From assembly GCA_964389035.1 (NCBI GenBank), contig CAYMCH010000002.1, forward strand, positions 1 through 41,433: 41,433 nt of DNA. The letters run 5' to 3'. The position numbers and the translations under genes were made by a program. How positions within the stretch are numbered: position 1 is the stretch's first letter; every line of letters begins with the position of its first letter. Under the pieces are notes generated by a model. That model ran no database searches and had not been told where the DNA came from. It was given only the letters and a program-made list of their open reading frames with translations. Positions 1-12,496 of the stretch are shown here, in pieces. Source of the DNA: an uncultured Candidatus Saccharibacteria bacterium (GTDB lineage Bacteria; Patescibacteriota; UBA1384; XYA2-FULL-43-10).

Positions 1-61
1 GGAATTAATTCCGATCCGAAATGTGGTGTTTATCACCTGCGTTCCCTTCGGGGATAGGATC

Positions 62-101
62 GGGATAATATAAAATGGGGCTAGGTAACTAGGCTCATTT
101 T
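62..101 (-). terminator. possible intrinsic terminator closing the XRE-MTase-DUF3800 operon
   Basis: On the minus strand, AAAATG (101-96) pairs with CATTTT (77-72) around an imperfect CCTAG-TTAC-CTAG hairpin. A T-rich run (TTTTATATTAT) follows. The structure overlaps the stop codon at 100-102. Confidence 0.3.
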
Positions 102-732
102 ATTTTGGCCAAATTTGTACCTGTATTTCTCTTCTGTTTATCATTTTCCTATATTTATCGTGGTTTTTTCTCTTATCATTAATTGATCTATTTATGACTC
201 CCGCGACATAATCTGCCAACTGTAACAGGTTATTCTTTTTTGAATCTTGCATTTTGATCTTTTTAATTTTTCTTGTGTTAGTATTGGCTTTTGTTTTTAA
301 ATATTTTTCTAATTGTCGACGAAAATCAAGATTGCCACTTTTATCGATAATGATAGTTGCACAGTCAAGTTTGTCTTTGGCATTTTCGAAAACTAAACTG
401 CAAGCATATTTATAAAATGACATTTTATCCTTGAAGCCATCGCCCCAAAGTTTTTTTGGATCTTTGTTTATAACAATGCTGTAGTAAAAAAAACTATAAG
501 GCATAACTGCTTGCAAAAATGCTTCGCGTACTCGGTCTGAATTGTTTTTGAAATGGAATTCGCTTGATAAGTCCCAATTTAATTCTCGTTTCAACAATTC
601 GATTCTTTGATCGCACGCTAACGCTTCATCATTTTCTTCAAATACAACCAGTGATATTGTAAAGTATCTGCTCGAACCCTGATCAATTTTAAGTCCGGGA
701 TCGCCAGATTCATCGATAAAAACTAACATCAA
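100..732 (-). CDS. DUF3800 family protein (uncharacterised)
   Basis: 210 aa. The N-terminal FIDESGDPG motif and C-terminal LLQLADYVAG motif match the conserved D-E and QxxD signature I recall for Pfam DUF3800. Its start overlaps the stop of the upstream methyltransferase by 4 nt (729-732). Confidence 0.7.
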   Translation of the reverse strand: MMLVFIDESGDPGLKIDQGSSRYFTISLVVFEENDEALACDQRIELLKRELNWDLSSEFHFKNNSDRVREAFLQAVMPYSFFYYSIVINKDPKKLWGDGFKDKMSFYKYACSLVFENAKDKLDCATIIIDKSGNLDFRRQLEKYLKTKANTNTRKIKKIKMQDSKKNNLLQLADYVAGVINRSINDKRKNHDKYRKMINRREIQVQIWPK

Positions 733-2282
733 AACCCCAATTCTTTTAATATTTTATAGAGATTTTTGTCGGCTTCTTTGGCTTTTTGTTCAGCCTCTTT
801 TAGCTCAACTAAAATATTTTCGATTGGCTCATACTCCTCAATCGCTCCATTATGAATATAGCGAGATGGTGAAATGTTGTAATCATTCTTGGCGATTTCT
901 TCCTTGCCAATGAACCGGCTAAAGCCATCAATCTCTTTCTTTGAATGATATGTTTTGACGATCTTTTCAATCTGTTCGTCCGAAATATAGTTTTTTGGGT
1001 CACCTTTAACAAATTCCTTCGATGCGTTGATGAGAAATATTTTATCTTTCAAACTATCTGGCTTTTTCTTGTTGAGGAAAATTATAATGCCAGGTGCAGT
1101 TGTGTTGTAAAACAGGTTTTCTGGCAGATATAAAACGCCTTCAATCAGGTCTTGTTCTACAAACCACTTGCGAACTTCCTTTTCTTTATTTGTATTTGCA
1201 TTTCCGCTACCGCGAGAAGCTGCACCGGTATCGAGGACGATTGCGGCGCGCCCACTATCATTTAAGCTTGATAAAATATGTTGTGCCCAACCCCAGTCGG
1301 CTTTACCGCCAGGATTACCAGCAGGAAATCGCTGATACGGGTCGTTTGTATAAAGTTCTTCATTAAAACCCGGCTGGTTCCACATCGGATTAGCAACTAC
1401 TCGATCAAACTTTTTTAAGCCATGTTTATCTTTAATTTTGGGATTATTAAAAGTATCGCCAAGTTCGATATTACCTTCCATATCATGAATTATCATGTTC
1501 ATGTTCGCCATAGACCAGCTTGTGGGCATATATTCCTGGCCGTAAAGACGCAGCGGAGTGAAAGATTTGATGCTTTGCTTTTCCTGTTTCTCTTTGAGGG
1601 CAAGCTCGCATTTAATGAGTAGCCCTGCACTTCCACAAGCAGGATCATAAACTTCCATGCCCGACTCGGCATCCATAATCATGGCCATGACAATGCCAAC
1701 TTCTCTGGGAGTGTAGAACTCTCCAGCGGTTTGACCCGAACTCTCTGCAAACTTACGGATTAAATATTCGTAGCTTCTGCCGATGATGTCCGGCTCGACA
1801 TCATTTAGCCCGAGTCGTTTTTGGCTAATAGCCTCAATCAAATTTGAAAGCCGATGATCGTCAATTTCTCTTTGTCCTCTTGTAGTTGCATTATAGTCGA
1901 TTGTATCAATTACCCCATCGAGTGCCGTGTTGTGAGTGGCGATTTCTCGAATTATACGAGTGAGTTCTTCGCCGATATTGTGAGAGAGCGAGCGAATTGC
2001 TTGCCATGTATCTTGTTTTTCTGGGTCTTTCGGTTTTATTGGGATATAAAAGCGGACGCGCGAATGATCAGCATCAATTTTCTTAATCGCTTCAACTCGT
2101 AAACCGCCTTTTGCAATGCGATTCACTTCATCATCAAAAACATCACAAAGTCGTTTTACAAATATTAACGGCAAAATATAGTCTTTGAATTTACCTGCAT
2201 CTTTTGACCCACGAATTGCACATGCAGCGTCCCATATCCAGTTTTCAAGTGACTTTTCTTTTTGGTTGTCTATTTTTGCCAT
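729..2282 (-). CDS. hsdM: HsdM-like (type I R-M subunit M family) N6-adenine DNA methyltransferase
   Basis: 517 aa. HsdM_N-like N-terminus (LENWIWDAACAIRG...YILPLIFVKRLCDVFD). AdoMet motif I is VYDPACGSAGLL. Motif IV is VVANPMWNQ, an NPMW variant of NPPF/W. C-terminal NISPSRY plus a coiled-coil tail, as in HsdM. Confidence 0.85.
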   Translation of the reverse strand: MAKIDNQKEKSLENWIWDAACAIRGSKDAGKFKDYILPLIFVKRLCDVFDDEVNRIAKGGLRVEAIKKIDADHSRVRFYIPIKPKDPEKQDTWQAIRSLSHNIGEELTRIIREIATHNTALDGVIDTIDYNATTRGQREIDDHRLSNLIEAISQKRLGLNDVEPDIIGRSYEYLIRKFAESSGQTAGEFYTPREVGIVMAMIMDAESGMEVYDPACGSAGLLIKCELALKEKQEKQSIKSFTPLRLYGQEYMPTSWSMANMNMIIHDMEGNIELGDTFNNPKIKDKHGLKKFDRVVANPMWNQPGFNEELYTNDPYQRFPAGNPGGKADWGWAQHILSSLNDSGRAAIVLDTGAASRGSGNANTNKEKEVRKWFVEQDLIEGVLYLPENLFYNTTAPGIIIFLNKKKPDSLKDKIFLINASKEFVKGDPKNYISDEQIEKIVKTYHSKKEIDGFSRFIGKEEIAKNDYNISPSRYIHNGAIEEYEPIENILVELKEAEQKAKEADKNLYKILKELGF

Positions 2283-2283
2283 T

Positions 2284-2487
2284 TTATTCCTTGATTAAAT
2301 CATCAACGCCCACATCTAATGCTTTGGCAATTTTGGTCAATGTTTCTATTGTCGGATTCTTGTTAACACCATTTTCAATCTTAACTATGGTGTTGAGTGA
2401 TAAATCCGCAAGACGAGCAATTTTTTCAAGTGAAAGCCCCTTTTCACCTCGGAGTCTCTTTAAATTAATAGAAATATTGTTTGACAT
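2284..2487 (-). CDS. XRE/Cro-C1 family helix-turn-helix transcriptional regulator
   Basis: 67 aa. The sequence LKRLRGEKGLSLEKIARLADLSLNTIVKIENG...PTIETLTKIAKALDV is a canonical HTH_3 layout. Its stop lies 1 nt before the MTase ATG. Confidence 0.85.
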   Translation of the reverse strand: MSNNISINLKRLRGEKGLSLEKIARLADLSLNTIVKIENGVNKNPTIETLTKIAKALDVGVDDLIKE

Positions 2488-2813
2488 AATTCCTGTGGTT
2501 CATTAATATTGTAGTATATAGAATATATTATATATCCCTCATTCTTGATACTATAATGATAACCATTTTAATCAGCTTTGTAAACCAGTTATTAGGGAGT
2601 TTCCCGTAGTAAGCGCGCGCTGGGATGGGTGGGGCAAGCGCATTATTGTTTTCGCCCTCTCTCCCCCCCCACCTAAACTTTTCAAAATCCCTCAAATCTC
2701 CTAAAGCTGCCAAGAGCATCCAGCCCAATCACTATCCGCCCAAATTCACCCGAGGGGTGCCAAAGATCCCGAATTAAAAAAAATGTGCTTGTTTTAAAAA
2801 ACGCAATAATGTT

Positions 2814-2983
2814 TTATGCTTCAAATCGCTCAAAGTAGGTTCGAGCGGAGTCGAGAACACACCACCATAGTAAATTTAACTTGTTTACATCTTTTACCCC
2901 AACTGCTCGCTCTGCTCGTTTGTAGAGTTCTGTAAAGGGTTTCTTTAGTTCAATATACAGTTTACTATCCAAGATAGTGCGGT
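2814..2983 (-). pseudogene. detached 3'-terminal fragment of a serine recombinase gene (alternative C-terminal exon-like piece)
   Basis: The minus-strand frame reads RTILDSKLYIELKKPFTELYKRAERAVGVKDVNKLNLLWW, nearly identical to the C-terminus of the 3162-4685 protein. It then continues CVLDSARTYFERFEA-stop. Upstream of 2983 the track ORF (to 3035) has no recombinase similarity. Confidence 0.55.
2862..2983. repeat. left arm of the 122-bp inverted repeat (IR-L)
   Basis: Hand alignment shows that the reverse complement of 2862-2983 equals 4543-4664 at 119 of 122 positions. The three mismatches are all near the inner end. The outer ~96 bp are identical. Confidence 0.9.
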
Positions 2984-3161
2984 TCCTGTGCGAAAAGCAC
3001 AGAAAGCATAAGGATGTATTACAATATTTCATCAATATATTCTTATGCTTTGAGCCATAAGGTTTGATCCCGATAGGGAAAAAAAGCGAGATTTAAATTG
3101 TCAGTGTAGTACTGAAAAGAAAGCATTTGATATATACCACAAAGGATACGAGGAGGAATTT

Positions 3162-4685
3162 ATGCTAAAATATTTCATTTACTGCAGAAAGTCATCCGAG
3201 GAGGAGGAACGGCAAATTTTGTCGATCGAGGCTCAACTCCAAGAACTTAGAGATTATGCTAAACAAAACGATCTATTTATCATCAAGGAGTTTACAGAGA
3301 GCCGAACAGCTAAGGAGCCGGGACGGCCAATATTCAATCAAATGCTTTCTGAAATTGACCAAGGCAAGGCTTCGGGAATCGTAGCTTGGAATCCTGATAG
3401 ATTAGCCAGAAATAGTATTGATGGCGGAAGAATAATCTATCTGGTTGATACCGGCAAGATTGAAAGCTTAAAATTCCCGACATTTTGGTTTGATACAACA
3501 CCTCAAGGCAAATTTATGTTAAGCGTTGCCTTTGGTCAAGCCAAGTACTATACCGACAATTTAAGAGAAAACATTTTGCGAGGAATTAGACAGAAGTTAA
3601 GGCGTGGTGAAATGCCGGCCAAAGCTCCACTTGGATATTACAACGAACCGAGATTGAGAACTATCGAACCAGACAAAACAACATTCAATAAGATGAAGCA
3701 CATTTTGGAGCTTTTCGCCAAAGGCAACCACACCTTAACTAAAATCCGAGATGAAATGTTTACTCTCGGCTTAGTTGGCCGGTATGGCAAGCCACATAGC
3801 TTATCTTCAATACCTGCCATACTATCCAATCCTTTCTATTACGGTATGTTTAGATTTAACGGCGAGCTGATCCAAGGCTCGCACAAGCCGATGATTTCTA
3901 AGAAACTTTTTGACAAGATACAATTGGCGATTAGAGAAAACGGTAAACCTCGGAAGATCAAACCAAAGCAAAAAGTCTTTCCATTTGTAGGTTTTGCTAA
4001 ATGTGGAGATTGTGGCTATATGATAACTGCCGAACTAAAGATCAAACCAAGTGGACGGGAATATATTTATTATCGTTGTACCAAGAAAAGCAAAACCTAT
4101 AAATGCGGTCAGCATGACTTTTTGCGTGAAGAAGCCTTTGCCAATCAAATACTCGACTACTGTCAAAAAGTTTCTATTCCTGATGAGTGGAGAGACAAGT
4201 TTCTAGGTAAAGTGGCAGAGTGGGAACAAGAAGAAAACGACTCATCGGGAATTTTCGTTCAAAAGCTTAAAGAAAAGCTCCAAGAGATAGCTGTTAAAAT
4301 AGATCGGTTATCAAACGGCTATCTTGAGGGAGCTTTTGAACTTCGCGAATACCATATCAAGAAGAATGAATTAGTTGAACTAAAAAAGACCATCGAAGAA
4401 GAATTAAGCGATTTTGAACGAAAAGGAAATCATCGGCTCGAACTCTTAAAGGATTGGATAATCGAGGCCAACAGAGCCGATAATCTCGCTAAAACAAAAA
4501 ATTTCCTCGAAATGAGAAATTTTTTGAAAACCGCCGGCTCGGACCGCACTATCTTGGACGGTAAACTGCATATTGAACTAAAGAAACCCTTTACAGAACT
4601 CTACAAACGAGCAGAGCGAGCAGTTGGGGTAAAAGATGTAAACAAGTTAAATTTACTATGGTGGACCCGATCAGGCTTGAACTGA
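3162..4685 (+). CDS. large serine recombinase (resolvase N-domain + recombinase domain + zinc ribbon + coiled coil)
   Basis: 507 aa. Catalytic-Ser N-terminus YCRKSSEEE...SIEAQ and DRLARN. Recombinase domain motif NPFYYG. Zinc ribbon CGDCG...YYRC...C. Long coiled-coil C-terminus. AGGAGG SD 5 nt upstream of the ATG. The last 27 nt overlap tRNA-Ala antisense. Confidence 0.9.
   Translation: MLKYFIYCRKSSEEEERQILSIEAQLQELRDYAKQNDLFIIKEFTESRTAKEPGRPIFNQMLSEIDQGKASGIVAWNPDRLARNSIDGGRIIYLVDTGKIESLKFPTFWFDTTPQGKFMLSVAFGQAKYYTDNLRENILRGIRQKLRRGEMPAKAPLGYYNEPRLRTIEPDKTTFNKMKHILELFAKGNHTLTKIRDEMFTLGLVGRYGKPHSLSSIPAILSNPFYYGMFRFNGELIQGSHKPMISKKLFDKIQLAIRENGKPRKIKPKQKVFPFVGFAKCGDCGYMITAELKIKPSGREYIYYRCTKKSKTYKCGQHDFLREEAFANQILDYCQKVSIPDEWRDKFLGKVAEWEQEENDSSGIFVQKLKEKLQEIAVKIDRLSNGYLEGAFELREYHIKKNELVELKKTIEEELSDFERKGNHRLELLKDWIIEANRADNLAKTKNFLEMRNFLKTAGSDRTILDGKLHIELKKPFTELYKRAERAVGVKDVNKLNLLWWTRSGLN
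4543..4664. repeat. right arm of the 122-bp inverted repeat (IR-R)
   Basis: This arm is the last ~40 codons of the recombinase ORF. Its outer 6 nt (TGGTGG, 4659-4664) are the complement of the CCACCA 3' end of tRNA-Ala. Confidence 0.9.
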
Positions 4686-4735
4686 CGACCTCATCGCTGC
4701 CAGCGATGCGCTCTAGCCAACTGAGCTACGGGCCC
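4659..4735 (-). tRNA. tRNA-Ala (anticodon GGC), CCA encoded
   Basis: 77 nt folded by hand: acceptor GGGCCCG/CGGGTCC with the G3:U70 alanine identity pair, D arm GCTC-AGTTGGCTA-GAGC, anticodon arm CATCG-CTGGCAG-CGATG, variable AGGTC, T arm GTCAG-TTCAAGC-CTGAT, then ACCA. Confidence 0.92.
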
Positions 4736-4936
4736 ATATTTATAAATAAACAAGATACAAGATACAGTAACCAAACAAAAATCTATTATCAAATGTCGGA
4801 CATTGTATATTGCATAATGAATAATGAATTATGTATAAAGAAATATCAAAGAAACAATTATCTTATCAACTTATACAATATATCATATCAAAATAGGAAA
4901 TTCCATGATTGGGCGCCGCCCCGGTACATCTGGTAC

Positions 4937-5341
4937 TTATGGGGCGGCAACGATGATACGCGGGAAGAACTCGGTCCCGCACTCGCGACACACAAGTGGC
5001 GTGTCGCGATCGTTAAATTCGTGTGGAGTGCCGCACAAGGGACAGAGACACTCGTCAGAACGTCTTGTGTAAGATAACTCGTGAAAAGAGCGGAGCAAAT
5101 CAGCCTCTTCAGCTTTTCTTTGCATTTCTTTTCCATATCGAGTGAGCCTGATCTCTCCCCACGCAGCAACAACAGGATAACTGCCTTGTGGAGGTGTAAA
5201 ATCAGGGTGATCACTCCTGTATGCAGCGAGCGCAGCAGAGATAGCCGCATCCTCGTTGCTAGGTCTGTTAACTCGAATCCATCTGTACTCATTACACCAG
5301 GGAAGATAAACCCTGGCAGACTGCGTGTGGGTGCTAGGCAC
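4937..5341 (-). CDS. hypothetical protein with C-terminal CxxC...CxxC zinc ribbon, in a GC-rich patch
   Basis: 134 codons with a GTG start and AAAGGGG about 9 nt upstream. Zinc-ribbon sequence is CPLCGTPHEF...CRECG. It is the most protein-like of several overlapping ORFs in a ~55-60% GC segment. I recognise no family. Confidence 0.4.
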   Translation of the reverse strand: MPSTHTQSARVYLPWCNEYRWIRVNRPSNEDAAISAALAAYRSDHPDFTPPQGSYPVVAAWGEIRLTRYGKEMQRKAEEADLLRSFHELSYTRRSDECLCPLCGTPHEFNDRDTPLVCRECGTEFFPRIIVAAP

Positions 5342-5395
5342 AATTAATTGCCCCTTTCAGTAAATTATATACCACAAACGAGCTGCATCGTCAAC

Positions 5396-5424
5396 TTGCC
5401 TGAGGCTGAATAATCTAGTATTAT
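5396..5424 (+). promoter_or_regulatory. putative sigma70-type promoter of leuS
   Basis: TTGCCT (5396-5401), a 17-nt spacer, then TATTAT (5419-5424). AAGGA SD lies before the ATG at 5448. Confidence 0.4.
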
Positions 5425-5447
5425 AAACATAATAACCAAGGAAAAGT

Positions 5448-8105
5448 ATGGCTAAGAAATATAATTTCAAAAAAATAGAGGTCAAATGGCAAGAGATTTG
5501 GGAGAAATCAAATGTTGGTAAAGCAAGAGATTTTGACCAAAAGCCGAAACATTATAATCTTATCGAATTCCCCTACCCTTCCGGTAGCGGCTTGCATGTA
5601 GGTCATTGTATGGGATTTGGTGCTAGCGATGCCTATTGCCGTATGAAACGTATGCAGGGCTACAATGTGCTGTTCCCTGTTGGCTGGGATGCCTTTGGTC
5701 TGCCAACAGAAAATTATGCTATAAAAACAGGAGTTCATCCTAGATTAGCTACTGAGCAAAACATCGCTAATTTTCGCCGTCAGATGAAATCGCTGGGCTT
5801 TGCTTTCGATTATGATCGCGAAGTAGATACTACTGATCCTGACTATTATAAGTGGACACAATGGATATTTTTACAATTTTATAAACATGCTGTAGTTGAT
5901 GGAAAATTAGTTAAGGTTGCCGATGACGATACAACTACCCCCCGACTCGCTTATCAGGCGGAGATGCCGATAAATTGGTGCCCGTCATGCAAAATTGGCT
6001 TGGCCAATGAAGAAGTAATCAACGGCAAGTGCGAGCGTTGTGGCGAAACAACCGAAAAACGTATGCAGAAGCAATGGATGTTACGTATTACGGCTTATGC
6101 TGACAGATTAATTGATGATTTGAATACGGTTGATTATCTCCCCAAGATCAAAACACAGCAGACAAATTGGATTGGACGATCAACAGGAACTAATGTAAAA
6201 TTCGAAATCCGAATGTCGAAATCCGAAACAAATACGAATGAAAAACAACCAAATCAAAAAGAATACATTGAAGTTTTTACTACGAGGGCGGATACTTTAT
6301 TTGGTTGTACTTATCTTGTATTGTCTCCAGAACATTCTTTGATAAAAAATCTTGGTTATCATATTCAAAATTTTGAAGAAGTTCAAAAATATATTAGTTC
6401 AGCTAAGAAGAAATCTGATTTAGAGCGCACGGAATTGCAGAAGGAAAAGACTGGAGTAAAATTATTTGGAATCTATGCGATAAATCCAATAAATAATGAA
6501 GAAATTGATATATATGTTGCCGATTACGTTTTGACGAATTATGGTACAGGTGCGGTGATGGCAGTACCGGCTCATGATGAGCGCGATTTTGAGTTTGCTA
6601 AAAAATATAAAATTCCAATAAAGTGGGTAATCAAGCCATCTACAACATCTGATATGGCTATTACCCAAAAAATTGACGATACTGGGACAGACAAAGTAGT
6701 TGGTGATGCAGTGGCTTATTTCTCTAAGTCAGAACCAGTAAATGATGGGTTTAACAGAAAAATTGACCGCATCTCTTATGGAATCTCTGAGTCAGCATAT
6801 ACTAGAAAGGGTACTTTGTTTAATTCCGCAGTTTTCAATGGTTTAACCTCAGAACAAGCTATAACCAAAATAACAGAAAAACTAAAAGAACTTGTGGCAG
6901 GAGATTATGCTGTTAATTACAAATTACGTGATTGGATATTTAGCAGACAACATTATTGGGGAGAGCCGATACCAATAATTCATTGTAGTAAATGTGGTAC
7001 ATTGCCAGTGGCTGAAAATCAGTTGCCAATTAAGTTGCCCAATGTTGAAAGATATGAGCCAACTGATACAGGAGAGTCTCCTTTAGCAACAATATCTGAT
7101 TGGGTAAACATTAAATGTCCTATATGTGGCGGTAATGCTAAGAGAGAAACAGATACCATGCCAAATTGGGCAGGATCTAGTTGGTATTTCTTGGCTTATG
7201 CGATGAAAAATATTAAAAATAAAAAATCAAATATAAAAAATATATTTGAATCAGATAAAGCTGAAATTAAATATTGGATGCCGGTGGATTTGTACAATGG
7301 CGGTATGGAACATACTACTTTGCATTTATTATATTCGAGATTTTGGCATAAGTTTTTGTATGATATGAAAGTTGTACCTACCAGTGAACCTTATGCCAAG
7401 CGCATAGCACATGGAATTATTTTAGGTACGGATAATCAAAAAATGAGTAAATCTAAAGGAAATGTTATAAATCCCGATGATATTGCTAAAGAATACGGGG
7501 CTGATTCATTGCGTGCTTATGTTATGTTTATTGGACCATACGATCAGGAATCAGCATGGAATATGAATGGCATTGCTGGAGTATATAGATTTCTTAATCG
7601 TGTCTGGCATAACGCCAATAAAGCAAAAAATATTGAGATAGATGAAGATCTTTTGGTTCCATTAAATAAATTAATCAAAAAATGCACAGAAGATATAGAA
7701 AATTATTCTTTAAATACTTATATTGCAGGTTTAATGGAATTCAATAATTTATTAAGCCAGAAAGATAAAATATCAAAAAACCTGTTGAAAATTTATTTAC
7801 AGCTACTCTCCCCTGCTTGTCCACATATTGCTGAAGAGTTATGGAAAGAAACTGAAGGCACAGAATCAATATTTTTATCTGCATGGCCGAAATACGATGA
7901 AAAATATTTAATCGAAAATAAAATTGAAATTGTAATTCAAATAAACGGTAAAGTGAGACAAAAATTATCTGTTCATTGTGATATAACTGACGATAAATTA
8001 AGATTATTAGCGATGGAAGATGCTAAAATTAAAGAATTAATTTCAAACAAAGAAATCAAAAAAGTAATCGTTGTTCCCAAAAAATTAGTTAGTATTGTAT
8101 TGTAA
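5448..8105 (+). CDS. leuS: leucyl-tRNA synthetase
   Basis: 885 aa. HIGH-type motif (PSGSGLHVGH), KMSKS motif (QKMSKSKGN), CP1 editing-domain motifs (TTRADTLFG, AVPAHDERDFEFA), and zinc-binding Cys pairs. Confidence 0.97.
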   Translation: MAKKYNFKKIEVKWQEIWEKSNVGKARDFDQKPKHYNLIEFPYPSGSGLHVGHCMGFGASDAYCRMKRMQGYNVLFPVGWDAFGLPTENYAIKTGVHPRLATEQNIANFRRQMKSLGFAFDYDREVDTTDPDYYKWTQWIFLQFYKHAVVDGKLVKVADDDTTTPRLAYQAEMPINWCPSCKIGLANEEVINGKCERCGETTEKRMQKQWMLRITAYADRLIDDLNTVDYLPKIKTQQTNWIGRSTGTNVKFEIRMSKSETNTNEKQPNQKEYIEVFTTRADTLFGCTYLVLSPEHSLIKNLGYHIQNFEEVQKYISSAKKKSDLERTELQKEKTGVKLFGIYAINPINNEEIDIYVADYVLTNYGTGAVMAVPAHDERDFEFAKKYKIPIKWVIKPSTTSDMAITQKIDDTGTDKVVGDAVAYFSKSEPVNDGFNRKIDRISYGISESAYTRKGTLFNSAVFNGLTSEQAITKITEKLKELVAGDYAVNYKLRDWIFSRQHYWGEPIPIIHCSKCGTLPVAENQLPIKLPNVERYEPTDTGESPLATISDWVNIKCPICGGNAKRETDTMPNWAGSSWYFLAYAMKNIKNKKSNIKNIFESDKAEIKYWMPVDLYNGGMEHTTLHLLYSRFWHKFLYDMKVVPTSEPYAKRIAHGIILGTDNQKMSKSKGNVINPDDIAKEYGADSLRAYVMFIGPYDQESAWNMNGIAGVYRFLNRVWHNANKAKNIEIDEDLLVPLNKLIKKCTEDIENYSLNTYIAGLMEFNNLLSQKDKISKNLLKIYLQLLSPACPHIAEELWKETEGTESIFLSAWPKYDEKYLIENKIEIVIQINGKVRQKLSVHCDITDDKLRLLAMEDAKIKELISNKEIKKVIVVPKKLVSIVL

Positions 8106-8171
8106 CTATTGCGTATTTGATTAAAATGTGTAATAATGTCATAGTAATAATCAGTAAAATATATATAAATT

Positions 8172-8381
8172 ATGGCAGAACCAAAGAAACGAACAAATAG
8201 ATCTAAGCGTAATATGCGTCGCATGCACGATAAGACTTCATTGCCTTCTTTAATTTATTGTCCCGAGTGTCATGCAGCCATGTTGAAACATCATGTGTGT
8301 AATGAATGTGGGAGTTATAAAGGTCAAAAAGTTATTGCAAAAGAAGAAGTTGTTAAAATAAAAGCTGAAGAAAAAGAATAG
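8172..8381 (+). CDS. rpmF: 50S ribosomal protein L32
   Basis: MAEPKKRTNRSKRNMRRMH N-terminus, with the CPEC...CNEC zinc form. Confidence 0.9.
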   Translation: MAEPKKRTNRSKRNMRRMHDKTSLPSLIYCPECHAAMLKHHVCNECGSYKGQKVIAKEEVVKIKAEEKE

Positions 8382-8385
8382 AATT

Positions 8386-8805
8386 ATGAATCGACATCTT
8401 TCAAGAATAATAATCATGCAAACTTTATTTGAGCATGATTTTAGAGATAATTCAGAAATTGAAGTCATAAGAGATCGCAATCTCGATGAATATAAAAATA
8501 AGGCAGACGTTGATTTTGTGTGCAAAAGTGTAGATGGTGTATTAAGAGATAAAGAGATGCTCGATCAAATGATTGCTGATTCTGCACCCGAATGGCCGTT
8601 GGATCAAATCTCCAACGTCGACAAATCCACATTGGAGCTGGCAATATTCGAAATGCTTAATTATAAAGATACTCCTTATAAAGTAATAATAAATGAGGCT
8701 GTCGAATTAGCTAAACAATTTGGCGGAGAATCATCATCAAAATTTGTAAATGGTGTTCTTGGTACAGTCTTTAATAAGATAAGTAAAACAAATGACAATA
8801 AATGA
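8386..8805 (+). CDS. nusB: transcription antitermination factor NusB
   Basis: 139 aa. RIIIMQTLFEHDF and the C-terminal INEAVELAKQFGGESSSKFVNGVLG signature. Confidence 0.88.
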   Translation: MNRHLSRIIIMQTLFEHDFRDNSEIEVIRDRNLDEYKNKADVDFVCKSVDGVLRDKEMLDQMIADSAPEWPLDQISNVDKSTLELAIFEMLNYKDTPYKVIINEAVELAKQFGGESSSKFVNGVLGTVFNKISKTNDNK

Positions 8806-9493
8806 TTTTGAAAATCAAATAGGAATTGAATTTTCCAATAAAAGTTTAATTGAAACAGTTTTTACGCATCGGTCTTATCTCAATGAGCATCGGTCTCTGG
8901 ATATTGAACATAATGAAAGATTGGAATTTCTTGGAGACGCTGTTCTTGAATTGTGTGCAACACAATATCTTTATTGTACATTTCCAGATAAAGCTGAGGG
9001 AGAAATGACTAATTGGAGGAGTGCGTTGGTAAAGGGAGAATCGTTATCTGCTGAAGCGAAAAGACTAGGCATGAATGATTTACTAAAAACATCTAGAGGT
9101 GAATCTAAAAATACTGGTAAAGCAAGAGATCTGCTTTTAGCAAATGCTCTCGAAGCATTAATAGGTGCAATCTATTTAGATAAAGATTATAAAACTGCTT
9201 ATGAATTTATTGAGAAAAATGTGTTATATAAACTTCCAGACATTTTAAAACAAGGCTCTTATTACGATTCAAAAAGCAAATTCCAAGAGATGTCACAGGA
9301 ATCTTTAGGCATTACTCCTACTTATGAAATGATCTCAGAATCTGGTCCTGATCATTCTAAAATATTTGTCATGGGGGCTTATCTTGGAGATAAAAAAGTT
9401 GGTGAAGGTGAAGGACCATCTAAGCAAAGAGCCCAATCAGAAGCTGCGAAAAATGCATTACAAAACTGGGACAATATAATACACAAAAAATAA
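8792..9493 (+). CDS. rnc: ribonuclease III
   Basis: FTHRSYLNE...NERLEFLGDAVLEL catalytic signature, plus a C-terminal dsRBD (SKQRAQSEAAKNAL). Confidence 0.95.
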   Translation: MTINDFENQIGIEFSNKSLIETVFTHRSYLNEHRSLDIEHNERLEFLGDAVLELCATQYLYCTFPDKAEGEMTNWRSALVKGESLSAEAKRLGMNDLLKTSRGESKNTGKARDLLLANALEALIGAIYLDKDYKTAYEFIEKNVLYKLPDILKQGSYYDSKSKFQEMSQESLGITPTYEMISESGPDHSKIFVMGAYLGDKKVGEGEGPSKQRAQSEAAKNALQNWDNIIHKK

Positions 9494-9520
9494 TCTAATA
9501 TGTTTTTGGATAATTTTAAG

Positions 9521-10477
9521 TTATTCCCACTTGATATTAGACCAACCCCAATCTTGCAGTTTTCGAGATTCATCAGCCGATGCAGATGGTGTGTCTGCGT
9601 AAGTGCTTAGAATAATCCCAATTAGTGTATGCCCTTCTCTTTCAACCGCAGACACTAAACAATGACCGGCTTCAGGCATATAACCAGTTTTTACACCAAT
9701 GGCACCTATATATTTATACTCATTGACTAAACGATTGGAATTATCAAGCTGATGATAAATAGTGCCGTCGATATTTTTGGCTACATATTTTGATAAAGAA
9801 GTAATTTTAGAAAAAGTATCATTTTTTAAAGCAATTCTCGTAAGAGTAAATAAATCTTTGGCAGTAGAATATCCACTTACATCTAAACCGGCAGGGTCTT
9901 TATAAAAAGTGTTTGTCATGCCCAATTCACTAGCTTTTTTATTCATAGCCATTAAGAATTGTTCGATTCCTTGATTATTAGACATATGTTCTGCTAAGGC
10001 ATAGGCTGCGTCATTCCCTGATTTGATTAACAAACAATGTAGTAACTCACTAACTGTAATTTTTTCTCCAGTTCTAAGAAAAACATCTGCTCCAATTTGA
10101 TTGCTGGCTGTTTCTGAAACATTAACAATCTCGTCGAGTTTATAATTTTCAAGAACAAGTAAAGCTGTCATAATCTTGGTAGTAGAGGCTATCGGTACTT
10201 TTTCATTTTCTTGATATCTTAGTAAGGTTTTCCCACTATCGTAATCACCTAACAAATAATAACGACTCTGTATGTCGGGTTTAATAGAAAATGGAATTAT
10301 TTTTGGAGAAGGTAAAATTTCTGGAAAACCGATAGAATCGATACCGACTGAAGCAACAACCTTTGAATTGTTGCCAGTTTCCAATTTGGCTATAGCTTGG
10401 TCATACTTATTAGATAAACCAGACATTCCGACAACATTAAAAAATATCGACAATAATATCAATGGTTTTTCAATCAT
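9521..10477 (-). CDS. D-alanyl-D-alanine carboxypeptidase (peptidase S11, low-MW PBP)
   Basis: N-terminal signal/anchor. SxxK (ASTTKIMT), SxN (SGND) and KTG (VKTGY) motifs in the canonical order. Confidence 0.88.
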   Translation of the reverse strand: MIEKPLILLSIFFNVVGMSGLSNKYDQAIAKLETGNNSKVVASVGIDSIGFPEILPSPKIIPFSIKPDIQSRYYLLGDYDSGKTLLRYQENEKVPIASTTKIMTALLVLENYKLDEIVNVSETASNQIGADVFLRTGEKITVSELLHCLLIKSGNDAAYALAEHMSNNQGIEQFLMAMNKKASELGMTNTFYKDPAGLDVSGYSTAKDLFTLTRIALKNDTFSKITSLSKYVAKNIDGTIYHQLDNSNRLVNEYKYIGAIGVKTGYMPEAGHCLVSAVEREGHTLIGIILSTYADTPSASADESRKLQDWGWSNIKWE

Positions 10478-11190
10478 AATATATCTTCAACTTTAATAGG
10501 TTTAAATTCTCCTGGTTTCAGGTTTAAATTGTAAATATCTAAATTGCCTATACCGATTCTAAGTAATTTATCAACAGACAAACCTATTTTACCACACATT
10601 TTTCTTATTTGTCGATTATATCCTGTGATTAACTCCAAATTTAAAGATATTTTTTTAGCATCGATCTTATGTATCTCTGTAACTTTATGCACTGTCATTG
10701 TTTTTCCATCAATTATTATGCCGTGTTCAAGCTGTTGTTTAATCCAATTAAGTGAATTTTTTTTAATAAAAGATGCAGTTATTTGATATGTTTTAATATG
10801 AGCTTTACTAGGGTGAATCAACTCATTGGTAAATTTGCCATCATTGGTCAGTATGATTAAACCTTCTGAATCAGCATCAAGGCGTCCTATGGGATAAATT
10901 CTTGATTTGCTTTTGACCAAATCTGTAACACTAGCTCTACCTTTTTCGTCATAAGCTGTAGAGACAACTCCTATGGGTTTATAAAGTGCCCAATATTCAT
11001 AAGAAATCTCATTCTTATTAATATTTTTTCCTTTAACTCTAATAACATCAGATTCAGGATCTACTTGATCACCATGCTTAGCAGTAAGATTATTAATTCT
11101 TACAGCTCCGCATTCAACCAACTCATCAGCTTTACGCCGTGAGCATATTCCCATATCAGCAATATATTTATTAATTCTTAACATAGTCAT
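10474..11190 (-). CDS. RsuA/RluB-family pseudouridine synthase
   Basis: N-terminal S4 domain (RINKYIADMGICSRRKADELV) and catalytic GRLDADSEGLIILTNDG. The start may be the second Met. Confidence 0.88.
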   Translation of the reverse strand: MTMLRINKYIADMGICSRRKADELVECGAVRINNLTAKHGDQVDPESDVIRVKGKNINKNEISYEYWALYKPIGVVSTAYDEKGRASVTDLVKSKSRIYPIGRLDADSEGLIILTNDGKFTNELIHPSKAHIKTYQITASFIKKNSLNWIKQQLEHGIIIDGKTMTVHKVTEIHKIDAKKISLNLELITGYNRQIRKMCGKIGLSVDKLLRIGIGNLDIYNLNLKPGEFKPIKVEDIL

Positions 11191-12496
11191 TTTTTCTAAA
11201 AGTTATTTTTATTAGGTATAAAATCATGAGCACGGTAATAATTAAAAGCGAAGAAAATATGCCTAGATATTTGCCGTTTTCGATAATATAATGAATATCA
11301 TAAGTGCTACTATAAATATAAAATCCTCTATTGTAAACAATTATTGGGAATGATAATAGTATTAAAAGTGAAATAATTGTGGCGATTGAGTGAGATATTA
11401 AAAAGTATTTATTGTTATTTTTTATTTTAGAAATCAGTTTAAATATAATATTGCCTATAAATAAAGGGGATAAAATAAATAATAATAAAGTAGTAAAAAA
11501 TCCAATAATTATATCAATCACATATTCTGGTTGCTTGTAAAAAGGCAAAGGGTAAACATTGTTATTGGTGTCATTTCGAATAATTAGATCATCAGTGATA
11601 GACGAAACATCATTGCTATATAACCTTGTTAAAAACATTTTTCCAGTTGGATTGAGCCATTTTTTTTCTGTAGCGTTATCAACTATAGATGAGATTTCAT
11701 CCTGTTTTAACCAATTTGCGTATGATAAAGTAAAGTCATTGGCAATTACTTTGTTATCTGATAACACATAGAGACTAGCGCTAATCGGCGAATACCAGTC
11801 CATATTATTTTCAGTTTTATATGCATTCTTTTGATGTTCATTGGCAAGATTTGTTAATTTCATTGGGTAGATTATGCGATCTGATGAAAAAGAGAATCTT
11901 AACGGTGTGATATTTCCGCTAGCTAAATTGCTAGCTACTTTTTCAGATTCGGTTAACTCTGGTCTTATTTTTGATATAACAAAATACCAATCATTGTCAG
12001 TATAATCTGATAAAAAATAACTTTGTTCTTCGGGGAAAGTGTATCTATTTTCTTTCATCCATTGCGATAAAACATTTTCGTTACTGGCTTTAAGGATGGT
12101 AGTGTCATATATATCAATATTTTTTCTTTCAATTATCTCAATAGTTGGCTCAATTGAATCATAAGCAGTATTAAAAGATTTTGTAGAGAATGACTGTGTG
12201 CCAGACTTTATCCTAGCAATATTATTTAAATTCTCAAATATTGATGCTGTAGATTTATTGACCTCTGGTTTGGAAGGTGTAGGTACTACCCATGTAAAAT
12301 CTTCTGAATTACCTTGATAACTGGTGGAAATTACTAAATCTTCAATGCCATTATGATAGTAAATAAAAGCTTTTTGGTCTTTTTCAAAAGTATAGTAGTC
12401 AGGAGGCACAAAAACTCCGCCATCTGCTTTGGCACAAGAAATACTTAAGATGCTAATAATAATTGCCAAAAAAATCGAAAGTAAAATTTTCCTCAT
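11171..12496 (-). CDS. secreted/membrane protein, DUF2330-like
   Basis: I place the start at the ATG at 12496, which has a GGAGGG SD. The track ORF starts earlier, at 12535. Signal peptide MRKILLSIFLAIIISILSISCAKA, then GGVFVPP...QKAFIYY...FTWVVPTPSKPEV resembling DUF2330, then about 4-5 C-terminal TM helices. Confidence 0.6.
   Translation of the reverse strand: MRKILLSIFLAIIISILSISCAKADGGVFVPPDYYTFEKDQKAFIYYHNGIEDLVISTSYQGNSEDFTWVVPTPSKPEVNKSTASIFENLNNIARIKSGTQSFSTKSFNTAYDSIEPTIEIIERKNIDIYDTTILKASNENVLSQWMKENRYTFPEEQSYFLSDYTDNDWYFVISKIRPELTESEKVASNLASGNITPLRFSFSSDRIIYPMKLTNLANEHQKNAYKTENNMDWYSPISASLYVLSDNKVIANDFTLSYANWLKQDEISSIVDNATEKKWLNPTGKMFLTRLYSNDVSSITDDLIIRNDTNNNVYPLPFYKQPEYVIDIIIGFFTTLLLFILSPLFIGNIIFKLISKIKNNNKYFLISHSIATIISLLILLSFPIIVYNRGFYIYSSTYDIHYIIENGKYLGIFSSLLIITVLMILYLIKITFRKNDYVKN

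Follow-up and report, generated by a model that had tools for sequence, protein, structure and literature searches.

What is a large serine recombinase gene doing between two inverted copies of its own 3' end, one of which runs into a tRNA gene? This question is raised by the window, a 41,433-nucleotide stretch of DNA from an uncultured Candidatus Saccharibacteria bacterium (contig CAYMCH010000002.1). Its relevant features are as follows.

15-60, plus strand: tentative, decayed left boundary of an island; tccgaaatgtgg followed by tgtttatcacc resembles a P end, core, and P' (a weak likeness, judged by eye against the junctions of relatives)
100-732, minus strand: DUF3800 protein; cargo; weak match to candidate defense family PDC-M04A
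729-2282, minus strand: Type-I-like (HsdM) DNA methyltransferase; cargo
2284-2487, minus strand: XRE-type regulator; first gene of the cargo operon
2556-2584, minus strand: promoter-like site ahead of the XRE-methylase-DUF3800 operon
2814-2861, minus strand: P' half-site; encodes the native C-terminal tail CVLDSARTYFERFEA and a stop
2862-2983, minus strand: left arm (orphan P); inverted spare of the gene's 3' end
2979-3056, plus strand: three-way-junction element, at the inner end of the left arm, where the upstream region of the recombinase begins
3095-3109, plus strand: box AAATTGTC(A/G)GTGTA, strongly conserved and ahead of the Shine-Dalgarno sequence at 3150-3156
3162-4685, plus strand: gene of the large serine recombinase, tRNA-joined and 507 aa long, ending ...LLWWTRSGLN
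4543-4664, plus strand: right arm (P); last ~41 recombinase codons, through the WW codons; makes up the P half of the attachment site
4659-4664: core TGGTGG, equal to CC-A-CCA of the tRNA; mirrored as CCACCA at 2862-2867
4659-4735, minus strand: tRNA-Ala(GGC) (ARAGORN; Rfam, 60.8 bits); B' half of the integration target; T-loop GAAC at 4679-4682

A repeat search found that the two arms form a 122-nt inverted repeat, 98% complementary, around a spacer of 1559 nt. Position 4543-4664 matches the reverse complement of 2862-2983 at 119 of 122 positions; counted inward from the outer end, the three mismatches are at 96, 105, and 106 nt, and the outer 95 nt of both arms are identical. The TGGTGG at 4659-4664 is both the last 6 nt of the right arm and the CC-A-CCA end of the tRNA. 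This agrees with the earlier note, which had described a near-perfect 122-bp inverted repeat made from the gene's own 3' end, with a right arm ending in the CCACCA of tRNA-Ala. In a self-BLAST of the whole window, this pair was the sole inverted repeat, and no second inverted repeat or direct repeat was found anywhere in the 41 kb. A 122-nt match in 41 kb cannot be due to chance. Because the arms differ at three inner positions, an assembler with k above ~96 separates them, and the orientation seen in the window is therefore trustworthy.

We found that the 507-aa protein is a large serine recombinase by its domain order (resolvase, recombinase, zinc ribbon). Its Pfam matches to Resolvase PF00239 (1.2e-20), Recombinase PF07508 (1.4e-10), and Zn_ribbon_recom PF13408 (3.4e-10) all pass the cutoffs, and the closest solved structure in the PDB is SPbeta SprA (E = 9e-10 over residues 51 to 431). 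We rejected a small serine DNA invertase (Hin/Gin/Cin/Pin) on the length and three-domain architecture of this protein and on the 122-bp arms. Some relatives bear the label "DNA invertase Pin-like," which is source-database annotation alone. An AlphaFold2 model of a native-tail relative (P0004; 20 sequences) was poor, with a pLDDT of 62, and contained long helices at residues 339 to 386 and 392 to 443 at pLDDT 70 to 85. Its tail was modeled as a helix at pLDDT ~50, and the model is too unsure to name tail contacts. No exact match of the window recombinase was found in public assemblies.

The final six codons of the window gene, TRSGLN, are antisense tRNA. On the minus strand, the left arm instead reads on in frame as ...LLWWCVLDSARTYFERFEA, with its stop at 2814-2816. 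The spare copy, which comprises the 41 final codons together with the core and native tail, lies inverted ~180 bp upstream of the recombinase start codon. The earlier note had remarked on this in-frame tail and stop and had proposed an alignment of homologous recombinases. We found that the tail is conserved and coding: nearly all of the >6000 homologues end in N.LWW followed by either antisense-tRNA codons or a conserved tail with the consensus CLLEKVRTHFEQNPD, and this type of tail is the native C terminus of the whole family. Within the tail, pN/pS was 0.42 in frame versus 0.75 and 1.38 in the other frames, and its invariant Arg is encoded by CGA, AGA, CGG, and AGG. This substitution pattern shows the tail to be protein coding and under protein-level constraint. 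We also considered the outer flank of the left arm as a degenerate tRNA and rejected this; it has no tRNA fold and is the conserved coding tail.

Judged from sequence, the recombinase reading frame spans its own attP, with the core in TGGTGG, 15 codons ahead of the native stop; integration into a tRNA 3' end swaps the conserved tail for antisense-tRNA codons; and the left arm and tail make up a complete, inverted spare attP (P-core-P'). The identity shared among attL, attP, and attR overlaps by just 4 nt, GTGG (L034 and similar loci), and the crossover, which in large serine integrases takes place at a central dinucleotide common to attP and attB, probably lies within these 4 nt.

In large serine integrases, the zinc-ribbon motif is shifted by 5 bp between attB and attP and lies nearer the center in attB (PMC3783163). 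In the window, GAAC is found at +26 from the core in P' (2839-2842, minus strand) versus +21 in the tRNA (4679-4682). Virtually all 55 listed loci have the motif, as G[AG]AC, at these positions: +26 for P' and +21 for the tRNA half (B'). Since this 5-bp shift matches the attP/attB signature of PMC3783163, the left site is of the attP type and the tRNA half of the attB type. The right arm is joined to tRNA-Ala in the window, and this junction is of the attR type. By the motif-shift test, the two sites bracketing 2984-4542 are thus attP-type and attR-type, and canonical large serine recombinases do not act on such a pair (PMC3783163).

We surveyed 157 distinct related loci from CPR/Patescibacteria, 64 of which were informative for the bracket. 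Further copies, for which the earlier note had proposed a search, proved to be common, with the inverted bracket present in 58 of the 64. The arms had a median length of 129 bp and a median identity of 99.1% within loci versus 59% between loci. They begin at codon ~460, after a conserved GSNR motif, and this inner boundary is kept across relatives just 47 to 50% identical in protein. Near the core (within 40 nt), the arms mismatched about half as often. In 25 metagenome loci and most genome loci, P' lay outside one arm and a tRNA outside the other, with no duplication. Six loci (L009, L026, L034, L037, L013, and L049) have a three-site anatomy, in which the left end is host DNA followed by GTGGTG+P', the middle holds the inverted P-core-P', and the right end is P-core-tRNA. 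In many loci, a second repeat pair (P'-Y, 170 to 400 bp) abuts the first and brackets the cargo. One locus (L176) can be read as a circle of 8026 bp that has no tRNA and contains two P-core-P'-Y repeats of 448 bp in inverted orientation; this is possibly the free form of the element, and it could also be an assembler path.

The arrangement has decayed in some relatives. L097 has lost most of P', and its arms are still 100% identical; the spare arm is lost or degraded in L023 and L117; and decayed arms or a decayed P' are found in L007, L117, and L097. The losses in L097, L023, and L117 mean that the arrangement is dispensable in the short term.

The window probably carries the right end of a small island that integrated at the tRNA-Ala(GGC) 3' end. 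In relatives, the left junction (host DNA, then GTGGTG+P') and the foreign cargo are those of a tRNA-targeting integrative island. In the window, the right junction is clear, and no clear left boundary was found. The window cargo (XRE, Type-I-like methylase, and DUF3800) is defense-like, and the cargo of relatives comprises R-M, OLD, or Abi-like genes, differing wholly between close relatives. Most cargos are without any replication gene; Replic_Relax is present in one. A scan of IMG/VR gave just 12 weak or partial matches, which suggests that these elements are not typical phages. The window's similarity to its closest relatives is limited to 2819-4741.

Between the left arm and the start codon, the three-way junction has the same fold in 36 of 36 loci, with 98.8% of cells paired and compensatory changes in 11 of 16 pairs. 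The conserved box at 3095-3109 may be a promoter or operator. An Rfam scan of 2300-5500 found the tRNA alone, and a terminator scan found no terminator.

Several observations bear on exchange between the arms. Recombinases at least 90% identical carry either tail form (tRNA-type or native), and in three loci (L002, L018, and L038) the upstream arm is joined to a tRNA; most assembled loci, the window included, are in the tRNA-joined state. Two relatives, L097 and L083, show 100.000% identity across 7828 bp, and the identical stretch begins precisely at the spare arm's CCACCA. Left of this CCACCA lies cargo in one of them and a second tRNA-Ala plus leuS in the other, and the spare arm of L083 is joined to that second tRNA-Ala. 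The position of this breakpoint shows a recent exchange at the spare arm's core. Among ~165 loci, L083 and L097 were the only informative pair of near-identical recombinases with different flanks. Recombinases at least 90% identical also adjoin different tRNAs, and mobility of the element appears to be recent.

We did not accept "flipped" contigs as proof of inversion. When the arms are at least as long as k, an assembler can take the wrong exit, and native-tail or circular contigs can be path choices; the end of L081, for example, repeats that contig's central site with 100% identity. The split of identical relatives at the spare core, together with both tails on near-identical recombinases, nevertheless makes flipping of 2984-4542 plausible. 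The arms are 4 to 5 times longer than a half-site and are homogenized, which points to homologous exchange, and flipping by this route is more likely than by self-catalysis.

Our best explanation, to which we give a probability of about 60%, is an integrative island whose recombinase gene lies across its attP and keeps a spare, inverted attP, with exchange between the copies flipping 2984-4542. According to this model, the reading frame of the unintegrated form would be ...LLWW-CVLDSARTYFERFEA, with the core in the WW codons (TGGTGG). Integration would join the gene to the tRNA, supply the CCACCA end of the tRNA, and change the 15-residue tail to TRSGLN. Gene conversion or homologous exchange would keep both copies alike. 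Exchange between the copies would flip 2984-4542, so that the gene regains its native tail and the spare arm is left on the tRNA; the gene body (left of 4543) would then be joined to TGTGTTCTCGAC and the tRNA to 2984-3060, with the gene downstream of the tRNA and codirectional with the cargo. The earlier note had claimed that either orientation leaves a complete recombinase ORF and an intact tRNA, and this geometry holds. Flipping would occur in living populations, mainly by homologous recombination, and by regenerating a native-tail recombinase within the integrated element it may set when the element is competent to move.

The earlier note had favored a self-catalyzed switch, in which the recombinase inverts 2984-4542 at the two cores and thereby gives on/off or read-through control of the XRE-methylase-DUF3800 operon. 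The same P half and the same core are present at both sites in inverted orientation, so that the chemistry would invert the segment; conservation of the arms is highest in their outer ~40 nt; the breakpoint between L097 and L083 falls exactly at the core; and the flipped gene would be codirectional with the operon. We nonetheless consider this reading unlikely. Recombination of an attP-type with an attR-type site is excluded for canonical serine integrases (PMC3783163) and would need noncanonical behavior, a canonical attP x attB reaction with the second tRNA is a better reading of the L097/L083 event, and site-specific exchange has no need of arms of 122 to 136 bp. Long, homogenized arms point to homologous exchange, and the claim of self-catalyzed inversion is not supported. 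A conserved operon switch is also unlikely given that the cargo differs completely between close relatives and the operon has its own promoter-like site. A somewhat better case can be made for the spare as mainly a second live attP, which we regard as possible but doubtful. Here a free circle resembling the yeast 2-micron plasmid would carry attP as two long inverted repeats, integrating via either one or capturing a second tRNA, and flipping and the tail swap would be by-products. The circular reading of L176, the P'-Y repeat pair around the cargo in many loci, the union of the L083 spare arm with a second tRNA-Ala, and the Replic_Relax gene are consistent with this. Replication genes are absent from most cargos, however, the circular reading may be an assembly path, and the protein constraint on the tail is unexplained unless the gene is regularly joined to it, which our main model also allows.

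Three further explanations fare far worse. The earlier note's suggestion that the left arm is an attP-like remnant of a second element was half right: the arm is a copy of attP, but it is a maintained part of the window's own element. A decaying remnant or rearrangement scar, a reading favored by the decayed arms or P' in L007, L117, and L097 and perhaps by the start of the window, would not stay ~99% identical to the resident gene while the region is 59% identical between loci, nor would it keep its inner boundary at codon ~460 across such divergent relatives; for the window we consider it very improbable. We gave slightly less credence still to, and rejected, a 1.8-kb IS-like unit that inserted at the tRNA end and has terminal inverted repeats of 122 bp. 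Many homologues do lie on contigs of 1.7 to 2.5 kb, and the closest relatives are similar over little more than such a unit, but breaks in the assemblies at the arms account for the short contigs, and on the left the unit is invariably flanked by the conserved tail/P' or by a tRNA and not by arbitrary target DNA, with no target duplication. An assembly artefact (a fold-back or chimeric join) is refuted for practical purposes. Contigs of this recombinase family often break at the arms, but the arms differ at three positions, and the same structure recurs in well over 100 independent assemblies from different assemblers.

A bolder extension of our preferred model, which we put forward tentatively and think more probably wrong than right, is that the state of the DNA is written into the enzyme. 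Integration, excision, and flipping would each change the 15 C-terminal residues; the tail would act as a module for directionality or activity; and the spare attP would toggle between a "locked," tRNA-tailed enzyme and a "competent," native-tailed one. When free, the element would be a circle of the 2-micron kind carrying two inverted attPs, and it could dispense with the separate recombination directionality factor (RDF) on which excision by large serine integrases depends. Large serine integrases are leading genome-engineering tools, and control of their directionality is a central open problem. In a family of >6000 homologues, the C terminus of the enzyme depends on the joined DNA in most of the ~160 loci examined, most of which also contain an inverted spare that could reverse the change. 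Should the tail prove to influence activity, this would be a new and compact way of controlling directionality. Near-identical recombinases at Ala, Ser, Gln, Gly, and other tRNAs suggest integrases that read the tRNA T-loop motif. The family also appears to be a major vehicle of small defense islands in CPR/Patescibacteria, whose mobile elements are poorly known. Since arms of 120 to 140 bp are near common assembler k-mer sizes, CPR contigs often break at these recombinase genes.

We could not find this layout, an inverted spare of the gene end and attP, described in the literature on CPR serine recombinases, invertons, attP inside integrase genes, or tRNA-Ala islands. Parts of it are found in known systems. 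In Hin with its H segment and in the staphylococcal plasmid invertible segment with binR, the recombinase gene lies inside a segment bracketed by inverted repeats. Serine invertase switches use enzymes of ~190 aa and 26-bp sites with Fis and an enhancer, or res-type sites. Unlike in the window family, the Hin and binR repeats do not consist of the coding 3' end of the recombinase gene itself, and inversion leaves the recombinase protein unchanged. The yeast 2-micron plasmid carries FLP, a tyrosine recombinase, and FRT sites inside 599-bp inverted repeats, with a role in amplification. L176, if it is a true circle, similarly has two long inverted repeats with recombination sites and the recombinase in one unique segment; in contrast to the eukaryotic plasmid, the window family integrates and is mostly without replication genes.

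Integrases of the SSV1 type are tyrosine recombinases with attP inside the integrase gene and a tRNA target, and integration alters the ORF by splitting the gene in two. No spare inverted copy that restores the gene is known in these systems. The window family shares the attP within the gene and the tRNA target but loses a 15-residue tail where the SSV1-type gene is split. These archaeal integrases are reviewed in PMC8371274. The ssrA islands of Dehalococcoides have small cargo and a large serine recombinase, DsiB, at the edge, target the T-loop/3' region of tmRNA, and undergo tandem accretion (PMC3146451). The small cargo, edge recombinase, and tRNA-like target resemble those of the window family. 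The Dehalococcoides islands differ in being bounded by 20-bp direct repeats and in having a six-gene integration module with a second small recombinase, and an inverted repeat is absent from the paper (PMC3146451).

The closest comparison is with the canonical large serine integrases. With those of Listeria A118/LI, phiC31, Bxb1, and SPbeta (SprA), the window protein shares the Resolvase, Recombinase, and zinc-ribbon domains and perhaps a long coiled-coil region. The attP/attB half-site motif is likewise shifted by 5 bp (PMC3783163), and the gene likewise lies at one end of the island beside the att site. Unlike in the canonical systems, integration occurs at the 3' ends of a wide range of tRNAs, where the T-loop is the recognition motif; the reading frame crosses attP, so that integration rewrites the C terminus; and a second, inverted attP with ~125 bp of identity to the gene is kept beside it.

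We found that the inverted repeat has the position and size given in the earlier note, with two arms of 122 nt each that are complementary at 119 of 122 positions. The relevant features are as follows.

2814-2816, minus strand, stop codon of the tail beyond the left arm
2839-2842, G[AG]AC motif, P' (tail) side
2862-2983, left (spare) arm
3162-4685, plus strand, large serine recombinase, 507 aa, with Resolvase, Recombinase, and Zn_ribbon_recom domains
4543-4664, right arm
4659-4735, minus strand, tRNA-Ala(GGC), convergent with the recombinase
4679-4682, G[AG]AC motif, tRNA side

The final ~41 recombinase codons form the right arm, which ends in TGGTGG; these six bases double as the CC-A-CCA end of the tRNA, as had been claimed. 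The in-frame tail proposed beyond the left arm is also present: read on the minus strand, the arm continues as CVLDSARTYFERFEA to the stop. The minus-strand genes left of the tail encode an XRE regulator, a Type-I-like methyltransferase, and a DUF3800 protein; the housekeeping genes leuS, rpmF, nusB, and rnc lie on the other side, beyond the tRNA. The genome is AT-rich, as is typical of CPR/Patescibacteria. Self-BLAST of the 41-kb window detected no second inverted repeat (E ≤ 1e-3) and no direct repeats.

More than 6000 recombinase homologues were found at E ≤ 1e-20, and the ones with a named organism belong to CPR groups, among them Berkelbacteria, Parcubacteria, and Shapirobacteria. Contigs of only 1.7 to 2.5 kb carry many of the homologues because contigs often begin or end within an arm. 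We sampled 80 loci from species-representative genomes and 80 from metagenomes and ran self-BLAST on each. The earlier note had asked whether related genomes hold further copies, and we found the same inverted-repeat bracket in 58 of the 64 distinct loci that extend far enough in both directions. The arms start at codon ~460, right behind a conserved GSNR motif, and have a median length of 129 bp. Median arm identity is 99% within a locus versus only 59% between loci, which indicates that the two copies evolve in concert. Such concerted evolution rules out a decaying scar as the origin of the left arm, an assembly artefact as the source of the repeat, and a randomly inserted IS; the IS-like unit offered earlier as an alternative is rejected.

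In almost all loci a convergent tRNA gene adjoins the right arm (Ala, 32; Ser, 14; Gln, 13; Gly, 6; Val, 2; Leu, Glu, and Asn, 1 each), and the conserved tail lies just outside the left arm. A second inverted-repeat pair, 170 to 400 bp long, occurs in many loci, and its right arm directly adjoins the left arm of the first pair. The far copy of this second repeat begins precisely at GTGGTG and continues into the tail sequence, with unrelated host DNA directly before it (loci L009, L026, L034, L037, L013, and L049). If the gene 3' end is called P, the tail sequence P', host DNA B, and the tRNA B', the island order is B-core-P'-Y ... cargo ... (Y-P'-core-P, inverted) – upstream region – recombinase – P-core-B'. 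Judged by sequence, we assign these three sites as attL, an internal inverted attP, and attR. The identities of attL and attR to attP overlap only in GTGG, which places the crossover within GTGG, at tRNA positions 71-74. In serine integrases, it is a hallmark that the zinc-ribbon-domain motif lies 5 bp further inward in attB than in attP (PMC3783163). The G[AG]AC motif lies at +21 from the tRNA end, in the T-loop, versus +26 in P', and this 5-bp difference is found in essentially all of the 55 loci listed. This independent test agrees with the hallmark and supports the site assignment, indicating that left arm and tail together make a true site of attP type, with an attR-type site at the right junction. 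The earlier suggestion of an attP-like remnant of a second element was therefore right about the type of site; the concerted arms speak against a decaying remnant.

Almost all aligned homologues end N.LWW, followed by one of two continuations. One consists of strings such as TRQDSNLRPP, the antisense translation of tRNA 3' halves; the other is a tail like that of the window's left arm, e.g., WWCVLAEARTIFEQ and WWGVLEEARTIFEK. The tail consensus from 35 distinct loci is C-L-L-E-K-V-R-T-H-F-E-Q-N-P-D, with the invariant Arg encoded by CGA, AGA, CGG, and AGG. Third positions vary at the tail Thr, Phe, Asn, and Pro, and pN/pS is 0.42 in frame versus 0.75 and 1.38 in the other frames. This coding signal coincides in part with the G[AG]AC DNA motif, and conservation reaches 15 to 20 nt further, into F-E-Q-N-P. 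These data indicate a real protein tail. Translation of this tail requires joining of the gene to P', either in the free element or through a flip (inversion of 2984-4542 by exchange between the arms); since the tail is constrained, the P'-joined state must matter. An AlphaFold model was too weak to bear on its role. The native tail occurs in 20 of 117 full-length top matches, and clusters at ≥90% identity mix native-tail recombinases with others that end in several different tRNA tails; the variety of tRNA tails shows recent movement of elements between tRNA genes.

The earlier note had proposed a cassette inverted by its own recombinase. The two-site inverted geometry of that proposal stands, and catalysis by the recombinase itself is disfavored. 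The flip would need attP-type × attR-type exchange, a pair that canonical serine integrases do not recombine (PMC3783163). The arms are 4 to 5 times as long as a half-site and are homogenised over their full length, mismatches being only about twofold rarer in the 40 nt beside the core, and in locus L097 they are still 100% identical despite a largely deleted P'. Taken together, these points lead us to favor homologous exchange or gene conversion, which would keep the arms alike and flip the segment. The outer ~40 nt of the arms are predicted to be selected as a recombinase-binding half-site. According to this model, integration would destroy the native C-terminus, as attP lies inside the gene, and the spare copy would let the integrated element regenerate it. 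We infer that the spare copy answers the problem made by an attP within the gene. After a flip, the gene would also no longer converge with the tRNA and would instead lie downstream of it, reading in the same direction as the cargo; a terminator scan found no terminator-like site between the tRNA and the cassette. We regard the anatomy as firmly established and infer the function of the flip and of the tail.

The best evidence for activity of the spare site came from L097 and L083, loci from different samples that are 100.000% identical over 7828 bp, covering the spare arm, recombinase, right arm, tRNA, and 6 kb of host DNA. Identity begins exactly at the CCACCA of the spare arm (position 5688 in L097). 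To the left, L097 has a partly deleted P' and then defence-like cargo (XRE, PLD nuclease, SocA/Panacea, and reverse transcriptase), and L083 has another tRNA-Ala(GGC) that matches the first at 64/77 positions, and then leuS, a flank syntenic with the window's own tRNA-Ala–leuS region. The pair matches the outcome expected of a canonical attP × attB reaction of the spare attP with another tRNA and implies a recent large rearrangement mediated by it. In L083 the cassette lies between two different inverted tRNA-Ala(GGC) genes (2870-2946 and 4745-4821), joining the leuS region to a POR/acetate-kinase region.

Other loci are also rearranged. The upstream arm is joined to a tRNA in L002, L018, and L038, and L130 has two different P' tails, one per side. 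The 12,034-nt contig L176 covers an 8026-bp unit ~1.5 times (direct repeat 54-4008 = 8080-12034) and has two inverted 448-bp P-core-P'-Y repeats without a tRNA; its cargo is XRE, two methylases, DpnII, and a KAP NTPase. It may be either a free circular form of the element or a repeat-induced assembly path. Arms at least as long as the assembler k allow a contig to exit an arm wrongly, and the contig end of L081 repeats the central site of that locus over 256 nt at 100% identity. We thus consider the flipped and circular contigs only suggestive. The window's assembly is safe from this error, since its arms differ at three positions, 96, 105, and 106 nt from the outer end. In L170 and L122, recombinase matches span 5 to 7 kb (220-5333 and 248-7486, respectively), and L170 has chained inverted repeats (1734-1841/3586-3693 and 3687-3789/5235-5337); each may hold two recombinase cassettes, pointing to tandem or nested elements at one tRNA.

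The cargos enclosed by the second repeat pair, 1.4 to 5 kb, are very diverse. Among them are restriction-modification genes (C5 methylase with R.HinP1I, N6/N4 methylases with ResIII, and DpnII systems), a MORC-like ATPase, OLD-type AAA-TOPRIM proteins, and a pPIWI-associated nuclease together with an AbiEii-like ATPase; other cargos encode a kinase, a peptidase, and a PAP2/LssY protein. Nucleotide similarity of the window to its closest relatives (~80%) is confined to 2819-4741, i.e., the tail, spare arm, upstream region, recombinase, and arm, plus the tRNA where the relative is also at tRNA-Ala. This stretch is the conserved module, with freely swapped cargo. In the window's cargo (100-2487), the methyltransferase best matches the C-terminal half of a 1236-residue Type-I methylase profile, with no HsdS or HsdR nearby, and the DUF3800 protein weakly matches the candidate defence family PDC-M04A. 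Controlled by an XRE or C-protein-like regulator, methylase and DUF3800 protein may together make up an unusual defence pair.

At window 1-60, tccgaaatgtgg followed by tgtttatcacc resembles a decayed P-end, core, and P' junction; tccgaaatgtgg then tgtttatcacctgcgttccc is like the P-arm end of another family member (L013, TGCGAAATGTGG) and then a decayed P'. The window begins only ~15 nt ahead of this possible P-arm remnant, which may, tentatively, mark the island's left boundary, formed by insertion beside an older element. On the other side, a locally G+C-richer patch between the tRNA and leuS holds a 134-aa ORF with a NUDIX-type zinc ribbon (4937-5341, minus strand); L083 has different small genes at this place.

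Directly inside the left arm, at 2979-3056, is a predicted three-way junction that lies at the same place in relatives (L009, 5851-5901). Its closing stem, CGGUUC/GAGCCG, has a conserved U.G pair, and its two hairpins differ freely in sequence among loci, several with GAAA- or UUCG-type loops. The common fold is found in 36 of 36 loci; pairing holds in 98.8% of cells of the model-fitted alignment, with compensatory changes at 11 of the 16 pairs. It has no Rfam match and could be a leader RNA, a processing/terminator signal, or a DNA structure. The inner arm boundary (4534-4548; 2979-2985/3047-3055) encodes I-G-S-N-R (ATCGGCTCGAACCGC), codons that hold a T-loop-like TCGAAC, the motif that the enzyme seems to recognize in tRNAs. 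Possibly the last ~41 codons are a relic of an earlier junction with a tRNA. In the left copy, arm homology resumes (GAGCCAT) past the two hairpins, which therefore resemble an insertion within the repeat and are absent from L067. A box, AAATTGTC(A/G)GTGTA, at 3095-3109 is nearly invariant among loci that otherwise differ upstream; it loosely resembles P-end plus core (AAATTTGGTGGTGT) and is a candidate promoter or recombinase operator. At 2590-2790, in the interval from P' to the XRE promoter, a G/C-rich stretch with G- and C-runs (gggatgggtggggcaagcg ... ctctccccccccacc) interrupts AT-rich surroundings; it is similar in character to the Y region of L176 and has no ORF support and no Rfam hit.

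The recombinase belongs, by domains and by att-site logic, with the large serine recombinases and is not a Hin-type invertase. An attP within the integrase gene recalls SSV1-type archaeal tyrosine integrases, where attP likewise lies inside the gene, and a recombinase gene within the invertible segment recalls Hin, which has that layout. The possible circle of the L176 type recalls the 2-micron plasmid. The islands also resemble the Dehalococcoides ssrA islands driven by DsiB; unlike the bracket here, those are described with direct repeats only, and no inverted repeat is mentioned (PMC3146451). Literature searches found no description of a large serine recombinase gene lying between its own 3' end and an inverted copy of that end.
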